From the IMG/VR virus record IMGVR_UViG_3300013101_003214: DNA of 13,150 nucleotides. One strand, written 5' to 3'. Shown here piece after piece: positions 8,862 through 9,345 of this stretch. The DNA comes from a virus. The translations under genes were made by a program, and so were the position numbers. The notes beneath the pieces were generated by a model, which made no database searches, was not told the DNA's origin, and worked only from the letters and a program-made list of their open reading frames with translations. Position 1 is the first letter of the stretch. Every line of letters starts with the position of its first letter.

Positions 8862-8904
8862 CCGAGACTAACGTGCTAGTCACCAGGTAGTGTATAACCT
8901 ACGG

Positions 8905-9306
8905 ATGTATACCACGCATCAAAAGGGGGAGATCGCTCAGCTACATGTTCAGTTACGAGCAACAGAAAAAGGGTTTACCGTATGCTTACCCACTGTCGAG
9001 GCAAGGTACGATTTGATTCTGGACGACAGCGGGACCCTTATCCGAGGGCAAGTCAAGTACGCTGATAGATGGGTAGGCCACGGGGCCATCGAGCTCGACC
9101 TCCGGAGAGACACAAGGAATGTCGGGCGTAAGCGTGCTTACGAGAAGTCCGAGGTAGACGCTGTCATTATTTACGTTCCCAGGGAAGACTTAATCCTTTG
9201 GCTTCCGCCAAAAGTGTTTCACAAAAAGAAGACAATTAACATTCGATTCAGTCCAGCGAAAAACGGAACAAAGACGGTATTCGACGCAAAGGACTTTATC
9301 TGGTGA
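8905..9306 (+). CDS. PD-(D/E)XK-family nuclease, Holliday-junction-resolvase (Hjc)-like, about 133 aa (alternative GTG start at 8890)
   Basis: KGEIAQLHVQLRATEKGFTVCL...ARYDLILDDSGTLIRGQVKYA parallels the Hjc core E...GFxVxR...DLIA...IEVK. Only plus-strand CDS. Inserted between tRNA-Lys and an orphan tRNA 3' fragment. No clear SD. Confidence 0.5.
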   Translation: MYTTHQKGEIAQLHVQLRATEKGFTVCLPTVEARYDLILDDSGTLIRGQVKYADRWVGHGAIELDLRRDTRNVGRKRAYEKSEVDAVIIYVPREDLILWLPPKVFHKKKTINIRFSPAKNGTKTVFDAKDFIW

Positions 9307-9345
9307 CCCAGTTAGTTGGAGGTTCGAATCCTCTCAGGGGTACCA
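9302..9345 (+). pseudogene. orphan tRNA 3' fragment: T-arm plus 3' acceptor strand plus A plus CCA, with no 5' partner
   Basis: ggagg-ttcgaat-cctct (9318-9334), then caggggt a cca. No complementary 5' acceptor strand was found within 120 nt upstream or upstream of the nuclease ORF. Confidence 0.4.

Follow-up and report, generated by a model that had tools for sequence, protein, structure and literature searches.

The window considered here is a stretch of 13,150 nucleotides (nt) of viral DNA (IMG/VR record IMGVR_UViG_3300013101_003214), which looks like part of a large phage genome. About 30 tRNA genes, found by ARAGORN and Rfam, lie on its plus strand from about position 8010 to 13077. A small nuclease gene is embedded in this array, between a complete tRNA-Lys(CTT) gene and a free-standing fragment made up of a T arm, an acceptor 3' strand and CCA. 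An earlier, sequence-only reading had described this order, and the layout was confirmed by ARAGORN, Rfam and the sequence itself. The features of the locus are as follows.

8790-8863, plus strand: complete tRNA-Lys(CTT) gene (ARAGORN; Rfam tRNA model, 58.9 bits)
8834-8863, plus strand: proximal arm of an imperfect direct repeat, formed by the variable loop, T arm and acceptor 3' strand of tRNA-Lys(CTT)
8864-8904, plus strand: 41-nt spacer and 5' untranslated region (5' UTR) of the nuclease gene, with a weak hairpin that encloses the start codon
8905-9306, plus strand: very probable free-standing homing-endonuclease gene of the I-Ssp6803I/PDDEXK_5 family, 133 amino acids (aa), based on Pfam, phmmer, fold, invariant residues and base composition at third codon positions (GC3)
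9304-9345, plus strand: probable orphan 3' part of a tRNA-Lys allele, from about nt 36 in the anticodon loop to CCA
9347-9422, plus strand: tRNA-Asp(GTC) gene, the downstream neighbour of the orphan (ARAGORN; Rfam, 45.9 bits)

The reading frame of the nuclease extends from 8890 to 9306 on the plus strand, and its translation contains the KGE, GFTV, ARYDLIL and IRGQVK segments that had been quoted as a nuclease core. The true start is almost certainly the ATG at 8905 and not the GTG at 8890, because homologues begin with MYTTH or MFSTH, followed by KGE, at that position. PF11645 (PDDEXK_5) is the I-Ssp6803I family (PMC3424549). The protein matches this Pfam profile with E=4.2e-23 and 82.3 bits (gathering cut-off, 26.1), over residues 8-136 of 138 and profile positions 2-135 of 138; at E<=10, PF11645 was the sole Pfam family found, with no Hjc family. 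At E<=1e-3, the family comprises 5,040 representatives. A phmmer search matched the structure of I-Ssp6803I (PDB 2OST) with E=1.3e-6, aligning YDLILD with YDLVFD and GQVK with VQVK. The AF2 model, which like the metagenome scan was based on a six-sequence alignment, reached a pLDDT of 86.7, and its top Foldseek matches were chains A and B of 2OST (TM 0.77-0.79, E about 1e-9), with the next families at E>=4e-4. Residues D36, Q49 and K51 are invariant in 11 diverse homologues and align to YDLVFD...VQVK of 2OST; the D...Q-x-K active-site signature and the N-terminal KGE/KGD helix are both present. Sequence comparison and the predicted fold together assign this ORF (open reading frame) to the I-Ssp6803I family of PD-(D/E)XK nucleases.

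The sequence-only reading had recognized a PD-(D/E)XK nuclease correctly and had called it Hjc-like. This likeness extends to the core fold shared with Hjc, the archaeal Holliday-junction resolvase, whose structures appeared in Foldseek at TM 0.4-0.52 and E of about 1e-3 to 2e-2, behind 2OST. It does not extend to the family, as the Pfam scan at E<=10 gave no Hjc match at the sequence level, and the gene context and polymorphism of the nuclease point to a homing element, not to a resolvase. Similarly, the glutamine found in place of the usual glutamate before VK is present but not odd; it is a family signature, because it is invariant across homologues, I-Ssp6803I included.

The base composition of the gene is foreign to the window phage. 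Its GC content is 0.49 and its GC3 is 0.56, against GC3 values of 0.79-0.84 in the resident genes for a major vault protein (MVP) homologue, dTMP kinase, GroES and a peptidase. As noted earlier from the letters, no Shine–Dalgarno (SD) sequence precedes the ATG at 8905. The hairpin fold of 8864-8904 is not significant (z -0.21), while 5'-UTR hairpins are significant in homologues at loci L007, L010 and L068 (z -5.9, -3.4 and -3.2). Weak translation is probable, given the missing SD sequence here and the hairpins sequestering the SD or start region in those three homologues. The hairpins at L007 5966-6003 and L010 5977-6000 pair the SD sequence and abut the start codon, and the one at L068 1472-1496 covers a purine-rich, SD-like stretch ahead of the ORF, whose start codon is undefined there. 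This suggests translational repression of the nuclease homologues.

The fragment behind the gene has the parts of a tRNA 3' end. Its T stem is GGAGG/CCTCT (9318-9322/9330-9334) with the T loop TTCGAAT, followed by the acceptor 3' strand CAGGGGT (9335-9341), the discriminator A (9342) and CCA (9343-9345). A repeat search found 24 of 30 positions identical between 8834-8863 and 9315-9344, 481 nt apart. When the portion from nt 36 to the 3' end was aligned globally with the 26 tRNAs of the window, tRNA-Lys(CTT) was the best match (30 identities) and Lys(TTT) the second (28); since the best match is the adjacent tRNA, the resemblance exceeds chance. A comparison limited to the T-stem 3' strand, acceptor and discriminator, against 94 tRNAs of several phages, likewise placed the Lys tRNAs first. 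Relative to tRNA-Lys(CTT), the T stem shows a compensatory change of T-A to G-C. Judged from these alignments, the fragment is a diverged copy of the adjacent tRNA-Lys and represents nt ~36-76 of a Lys allele, the 3' portion that was displaced.

The position of this fragment is exact, in that its opening three bases (9304-9306) are the TGA stop codon of the nuclease. In the alignment, this TGA falls on T36-A37-A38 of the Lys anticodon loop (CTTAA), and the stop codon is separated from the T stem by 11 nt, compared with 10 nt in the tRNA. The register is thus that of a tRNA cut in its anticodon loop. The earlier description of a fragment at 9302-9345 whose 5' partner is missing was right about the fragment, which is real; however, it begins at 9304, with the stop codon, and its 5' partner is not simply missing. 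No complete tRNA overlaps 9302-9345 according to Rfam at E<=10 or ARAGORN, even when introns were permitted.

Thr(CGT), Pro(GGG) and Asn(GTT) show the same layout, in which a complete tRNA is followed by the nuclease gene and then by a partial copy of that tRNA beginning in the anticodon loop. At L021/L022, tRNA-Thr(CGT) is followed after ~10 nt by the nuclease gene, then TAAAGCGGAGGTCGGGGGTTCGAAGCCCTTCGTCAGCTCCA, 4 nt and tRNA-Thr(TGT); from T36-A37-A38 on, 31 of 41 positions of the fragment agree with the upstream Thr(CGT), including 11 of 11 in the acceptor, discriminator and CCA. At L068, the order is tRNA-Pro(GGG), 29 nt, the nuclease gene and TGA CGAGAGGTC GCCGG TTCGATC CCGGC CACCCCG A, with an acceptor identical to that of tRNA-Pro(GGG) and compensatory changes in the T stem. 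In the halovirus HSTV-4, tRNA-Asn(GTT) is separated by 1 nt from the start of the nuclease gene, which is followed by CAG TAA AGGCTGACAGTCGGGTTCGAGTCCTGTCCTCGGCGCT. Mirror cases also occur, in which the orphan is a 5' part located ahead of the start codon and the complete tRNA follows the stop codon: a 29-nt 5' part of Pro(CGG) at L023 2951-2979, a decayed Lys 5' half at L015, and an exact 15-nt copy of tRNA-Ser nt 1-15 in Escherichia phage SelmaRatti, where the complete tRNA-Ser lies 2 nt after the stop codon. Altogether, 3' orphans starting in the anticodon loop were found in four lineages and 5' orphans in three.

A distant subgroup with longer ORFs of ~200 aa (L057, L058, L060-L063, L071-L073, L076 and L077) has a free T arm and acceptor, in some cases with CCA, 25-45 nt after the stop codon. 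The motif AATCAAAT stands ahead of the T arm in L058, L060, L062, L072, L073 and L076. Neither an intron model match nor a similar tRNA nearby was found in this subgroup.

Haloviruses provide a comparison of alleles with and without the gene. It is present in HSTV-4, HJTV-3, HRTV-24 and HRTV-15, and missing from HJTV-2, HSTV-3 and HRTV-21, whose flanks are 97-99% identical to those of the carriers. The gene-less viruses have one tRNA-Asn, with the anticodon arm CCTGA-CTGTTAA-TCAGG. In the carriers, the complete upstream tRNA-Asn has the anticodon arm ACGAG-CTGTTAC-CTCGT, all five stem pairs being changed in a compensatory manner. The orphan fragment occurs only in carriers, and in HSTV-4 it equals the gene-less allele, with 156 of 156 positions identical from the T loop into the downstream gene. 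The halovirus orphan is, therefore, the recipient's own 3' part. T5-like phages were considered as a second such comparison, and the site proved too variable across genomes to define an empty site.

An empty site, as proposed for checking by the sequence-only reading, was thus found for the halovirus homologue and not for the window's own phage, for which no gene-less relative was present in the collections searched (phage megablast and IMG/VR). Megablast against the phage collection returned no close relatives, nor did IMG/VR scans with the nuclease, the peptidase and the 885-aa MVP homologue; the last search was useless for synteny because its matches were only bacterial MVP homologues at ~42% identity. 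Locus L001, from another assembly, is 100% identical to the window over 4.8 kb.

Relatives of the nuclease are often associated with tRNA genes. The closest proteins (L002, L003 and L004, 48-60% identity) are encoded directly 3' of a same-strand tRNA-Lys(CTT), with 32-41 nt from the tRNA to the start codon. tRNA-Lys(CTT) abuts the nuclease gene on its upstream side in the window, L002, L003, L004 and L016, and on its downstream side in L015; the window nuclease thus falls in a clade invariably found beside this tRNA gene. L002 shares the gene order of the window (Tyr-Lys(TTT)-Gln-Phe-Lys(CTT)-nuclease) and contains, at the same place after the stop codon, a more decayed remnant, CCTTCGAGTCCTTCCGGGGGCACTA, whose tail is identical at 12 of 13 positions to the window's Lys(TTT). 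L003 and L004 have no remnant, and their next tRNA begins 6-8 nt past the stop codon.

Adjacency or close proximity to tRNAs extends to more distant homologues in isolated phages. A tRNA-Asp lies 7 nt after the stop codon of the homologue in Streptomyces phage Forrest, and a tRNA-Arg ~140 nt after it in Enterococcus phage EFP01; the Synechococcus phage Sf-FR1 homologue is located between tRNA-Arg and tRNA-Val, and the ORF of Pectobacterium phage My1 overlaps tRNA-Ile. In a metagenomic survey of homologues (51 loci, 42 evaluable copies), about 30 of the 42 were accompanied by a tRNA on the same strand whose start fell between -6 and +45 nt relative to the stop codon, and the adjacency held even where this was the sole tRNA in 6 kb. 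A neighbour-joining tree of 50 proteins groups the nucleases into clades that each go with a single tRNA species, which may be located on either side of the gene. For example, Pro(GGG) is upstream of the nuclease in L007, L044 and L068 (the last fetched after the tree had been built) and downstream in L035 and L040.

Several other arrangements were noticed at these loci. In the Ala(GGC) group (L046-L065), a ~0.5-kb module of nuclease and tRNA-Ala(GGC) appears inverted relative to a conserved neighbour gene among contigs, as seen in L050 2351-4525 against L056 2955-787. In metagenome-assembled genomes (MAGs) of Acidobacteriota, L086 and L089, a consensus sigma-70 promoter (TTGACA-N17-TAGAAT or TAATAT) is found ~100 nt before the ORF. 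A solitary tRNA-Pro(CGG) is located 6 nt past the L086 nuclease gene; the L089 copy has an early in-frame stop and is a probable pseudogene, with its tRNA just past the position where the intact ORF would end. These Acidobacteriota cases look like insertions between a tRNA promoter and its tRNA. A search for orphan 5' halves upstream of the solitary tRNAs in the Pro(CGG), Ala(GGC) and Asp(GTC) groups gave nothing significant. Just downstream of the L016 nuclease, 3432-3570 contains sub-threshold matches resembling Y RNA (YrlA), with 37 bits against a gathering score of 69. A gene for a Ro-like RNA-binding protein lies near the homologue in Streptomyces phage Forrest (L005 4112-5390).

These observations are best explained, and probably so for the window, by an intron-less homing element that targets the anticodon region of a tRNA gene, keeps an intact tRNA upstream and leaves the displaced 3' part behind. 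The cleavage site within the tRNA gene, homing, immunity through re-coded stems, the repair pathway and expression from the array transcript are inferred. The general model is supported, at the level of sequence comparison, by the four 3'-orphan lineages, the three 5'-orphan lineages and one clean allele comparison; the history of the window itself is inferred by analogy. In genomes without the nuclease gene, the enzyme would cut its cognate tRNA gene within or close to the anticodon loop. In the window, the tRNA-Lys gene of an ancestral phage would have been cut in its anticodon loop, and the left end repaired from a donor of the form "tRNA-Lys(CTT) - nuclease gene", installing the gene and a donor-type, presumably cleavage-resistant tRNA. 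The complete tRNA-Lys(CTT) at 8790-8863 is interpreted as this rebuilt, donor-type copy and as the cognate tRNA of the nuclease clade. The right end would be the recipient's tRNA from about nt 36 on, joined directly behind the nuclease stop codon. Since the tRNA is the sole homology common to unrelated phages, its 5' part would be usable on the left, with illegitimate joining on the right.

The outcome of these steps would be a complete tRNA-Lys(CTT), the 41-nt spacer, the nuclease gene, the orphan 3' part and, as before the insertion, tRNA-Asp as the neighbour. tRNA function would be fully preserved, the duplicated tRNA part filling the role played by the self-splicing intron of I-Ssp6803I. 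The nuclease gene is very probably a mobile homing endonuclease gene, as had been suggested with the proposal of a mobile insertion that disrupted a tRNA gene. In that proposal, the disruption does not stand, as the fragment would be a by-product of insertion and the upstream tRNA-Lys(CTT) the working copy. The orphan may also act as a right-hand homology arm for homing into any phage that shares only the tRNA gene. Once formed, a "tRNA - gene - orphan" unit would carry homology on both sides and could home efficiently, and the re-coded stems of the linked tRNA would protect the carrier genome. Expression probably occurs from the array transcript, from which RNase P and RNase Z would free the flanking tRNAs. 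As tRNA-Asp starts 1 nt after the orphan CCA, an RNase P cut there would define the 3' end of the nuclease mRNA.

Several points weigh against this history. Because no gene-less relative of the window phage was found, the window case rests on the halovirus analogy. Identity between the orphan and the adjacent tRNA is just ~72%, and in the anticodon-stem strand the orphan is as close to Lys(TTT) as to Lys(CTT); an origin from a paralogue is therefore possible. Most family members, such as L003, L004, L016 and L042, have no orphan. At L068, the anticodon-stem strand is unchanged between the two copies. Moreover, the carrier's intact tRNA keeps a normal anticodon loop, and immunity would therefore have to come from the stem changes.

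One different view is that the fragment has been kept as a functional RNA: the nuclease mRNA would end in a T-arm/acceptor/CCA "top half" serving as a processing signal or stabilizer after the RNase P cut before tRNA-Asp. This is unlikely, while being compatible with the origin of the fragment proposed above. The intact T arm (also intact in L021 and L068), the compensatory change relative to tRNA-Lys(CTT) and the retained CCA fit such a role, as does the T-loop box still recognizable in L002 despite 60% protein identity between the two phages. However, the L002 remnant has lost the T-stem 5' strand and its CCA has become CTA, the HSTV-4 T stem has a 3-nt insertion, and the element is missing from L003 and L004. 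The fold of 9296-9346 is not unusually stable (z -0.85), and compensatory differences are equally expected from two different functional alleles.

Quite unlikely is the notion that the fragment is an ordinary decaying pseudo-tRNA left by array turnover, which adjoins the nuclease by coincidence after the gene landed in an intergenic spacer. Such debris does exist in the array, where 9613-9646 is another orphan T arm and 9677-9747 a pseudo-tRNA resembling tRNA-Gln; the acceptor fit is unspecific, as ARAGORN accepts the fragment when it is joined to 5' halves of several unrelated tRNAs; and L003 and L004 carry the gene without a fragment. Coincidence would not account for a fragment that starts exactly at the stop codon in anticodon-loop register and is most similar to the adjacent tRNA. 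Nor would it explain why unrelated viruses show the arrangement again with tRNAs for Thr, Pro and Asn, or why the halovirus fragment is confined to carriers and equals the 3' end of the gene-less allele.

It could also be argued that the protein is not selfish but is a phage nuclease for recombination, repair or RNA processing, co-expressed with tRNAs, so that the adjacency reflects co-regulation. The gene is indeed always on the same strand as the tRNA genes and tightly packed with them, a consensus promoter precedes the nuclease-tRNA pair in the Acidobacteriota MAGs, and the PD-(D/E)XK superfamily includes resolvases and tRNA-splicing endonucleases (PMC3424549). This is nevertheless very improbable in view of the presence/absence polymorphism among 97-100% identical haloviruses, with insertion inside a tRNA gene. 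The patchy distribution, foreign composition and pseudogenized copy at L089 argue in the same direction, and the closest characterized relative is a proven homing endonuclease.

The sequence-only reading had offered, as its alternative, a tRNA gene containing a giant ORF-bearing intron with a diverged 5' exon. Rfam scans of 8780-9430 (E<=10) and 7900-13150 (E<=1) detected neither a group I intron nor any other ribozyme, the loci of 12 relatives likewise yielded none, and ARAGORN with introns allowed reported nothing at the nuclease locus. The non-coding space around the ORF amounts to 41 nt before and 0 nt after it; a ribozyme has no room, because only these 41 nt precede the ATG and the fragment starts at the stop codon. 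To look for a 5' partner, candidate 5' pieces were joined artificially to the fragment (204,000 and 281,000 combinations), and ARAGORN recognized no tRNA whose 5' half came from 8864-8904. It did accept 5' halves of several unrelated tRNAs (Thr(GGT), Cys and the tRNA at 10997), and this test therefore does not identify the source tRNA; a scan for complementarity to CAGGGGT was uninformative when G-U pairs were allowed. Although group I introns within tRNA-fMet anticodon loops encode I-Ssp6803I and further PF11645 members (PMC13011429), and the fragment fits a 3' exon in both length and register, a degenerate group I intron splitting the tRNA is extremely improbable here, given the missing ribozyme, space and 5' half, the complete tRNA-Lys upstream, and a gene-less halovirus allele in which the fragment is continuous with an ordinary tRNA.

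It is usually assumed that a homing endonuclease residing in an essential gene can stay harmless only by means of an intron or intein. In viruses, the PF11645 family appears to use another solution, a partial duplication of the tRNA that provides a re-coded, presumably resistant copy. The window element resembles I-Ssp6803I, encoded in the group I intron of Synechocystis tRNA-fMet, in family, fold and D...QxK signature. The host gene is a tRNA gene in both, and the window junction lies in the anticodon loop, the region recognized by the founder enzyme. It differs in that no intron or ribozyme is present and the duplicated part, instead of RNA splicing, keeps the tRNA functional; it resides in a virus that has a large tRNA array; and the putative target is tRNA-Lys and not tRNA-fMet. 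Another parallel is the integrase-driven insertion of prophages and islands into tRNA genes, where attP carries the tRNA 3' end. The element thereby brings a replacement tRNA part, leaving an intact gene at one junction and a displaced partial copy at the other. The genetic outcome is the same for the nuclease element; however, a site-specific recombinase acts in one case, and a double-strand break and its repair would act in the other, and the window element, of ~0.45 kb, encodes the nuclease alone.

SegB of phages T4 and T6 is a free-standing GIY-YIG endonuclease that cleaves the T-psi-C box in tRNA genes and drives the inheritance of tRNA genes (PMC2330249), and it causes microhomology-mediated duplications of tRNA and segB (PMC13096335). 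It shares with the window element the position of a free-standing endonuclease gene within a phage tRNA cluster. The GIY-YIG fold is unrelated, and SegB recognizes the T loop of many tRNAs, whereas clades of the window type track one tRNA species and have the junction in the anticodon loop. A rebuilt tRNA with an orphan half is not described for SegB in either source (PMC2330249, PMC13096335), and no description of this arrangement was found in the open-access literature. A review noted that all phage group I introns then known sit in protein-coding genes despite the many phage tRNA genes (PMC3984707).

In a broader view, PF11645 nucleases would be widespread intron-less homing elements of bacterial and archaeal viruses and of some bacterial chromosomes. 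They would invade tRNA genes at the anticodon loop, carry a replacement tRNA part with re-coded, immunity-giving stems instead of a ribozyme, leave the displaced half as a homology arm, and home into genomes that share only that tRNA gene. This full generalization is about as likely as not. If true, it would explain at least some of the orphan tRNA halves and compensatory stem changes seen in the tRNA arrays of viruses, and would provide natural nucleases specific for tRNA genes, with every clade linked to a single tRNA species. It also bears on the nucleases in phage tRNA clusters that remodel these clusters under pressure from tRNA-targeting defence (PMC13096335).

The minus strand includes genes for thymidylate kinase, an HNH endonuclease, GroES, the 885-aa MVP homologue and a VanY/PG-binding peptidase. 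The following structured-RNA gene is found on the same strand.

2277-2605, minus strand: tmRNA gene

The nuclease had been named the only plus-strand coding sequence in the window, which is consistent with the data on a check that was not exhaustive. Other long plus-strand ORFs (for example, 1137-1820, 4591-5697 and 6139-7302) overlap identified minus-strand genes and look like antisense shadows, and the sole two that were scanned, 1137-1817 and 3662-4366, gave no Pfam match. The 885-aa ORF (4636-7293, minus strand) is a full-length MVP homologue (PF11978 MVP shoulder, PF17795), ~42% identical to proteins of Myxococcota and other bacteria. The HNH endonuclease gene (PF13392; 1733-2260, minus strand) is located 17 nt from the tmRNA gene and is foreign in composition, with a GC3 of 0.51 against ~0.8; it may be a second homing endonuclease adjoining a structured-RNA gene.

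Five further tRNA-like cloverleaves occur on the plus strand (7705-7780, 10918-10990, 12698-12771, 12773-12843 and ~10160-10240), with good T arms and CCA, and with apparent anticodons CAT, TAC, ACG and CCG in four of the five. They were missed by ARAGORN and by the Rfam tRNA model at E<=1, and their D arms are short or odd or their anticodon stems long. The second free T arm (9613-9646, plus strand; CTAGG TTCGAAT CCTAG) stands 4 nt past the tRNA at 9538-9608, and the 5' half of the pseudo-tRNA at 9677-9747 (plus strand) is 88% identical to tRNA-Gln(CTG) at 8232-8256. Both may be scars of earlier rearrangements, and a tRNA-Ser reported by ARAGORN at 9557-9646 is an artefact assembled from these pieces. 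Finally, a small ORF of 42-49 aa (8655-8783, minus strand; MSEADKIIEDVRELAKKL...) lies opposite to the array in a 197-nt gap and overlaps a degenerate T-loop-like sequence at 8715-8740.

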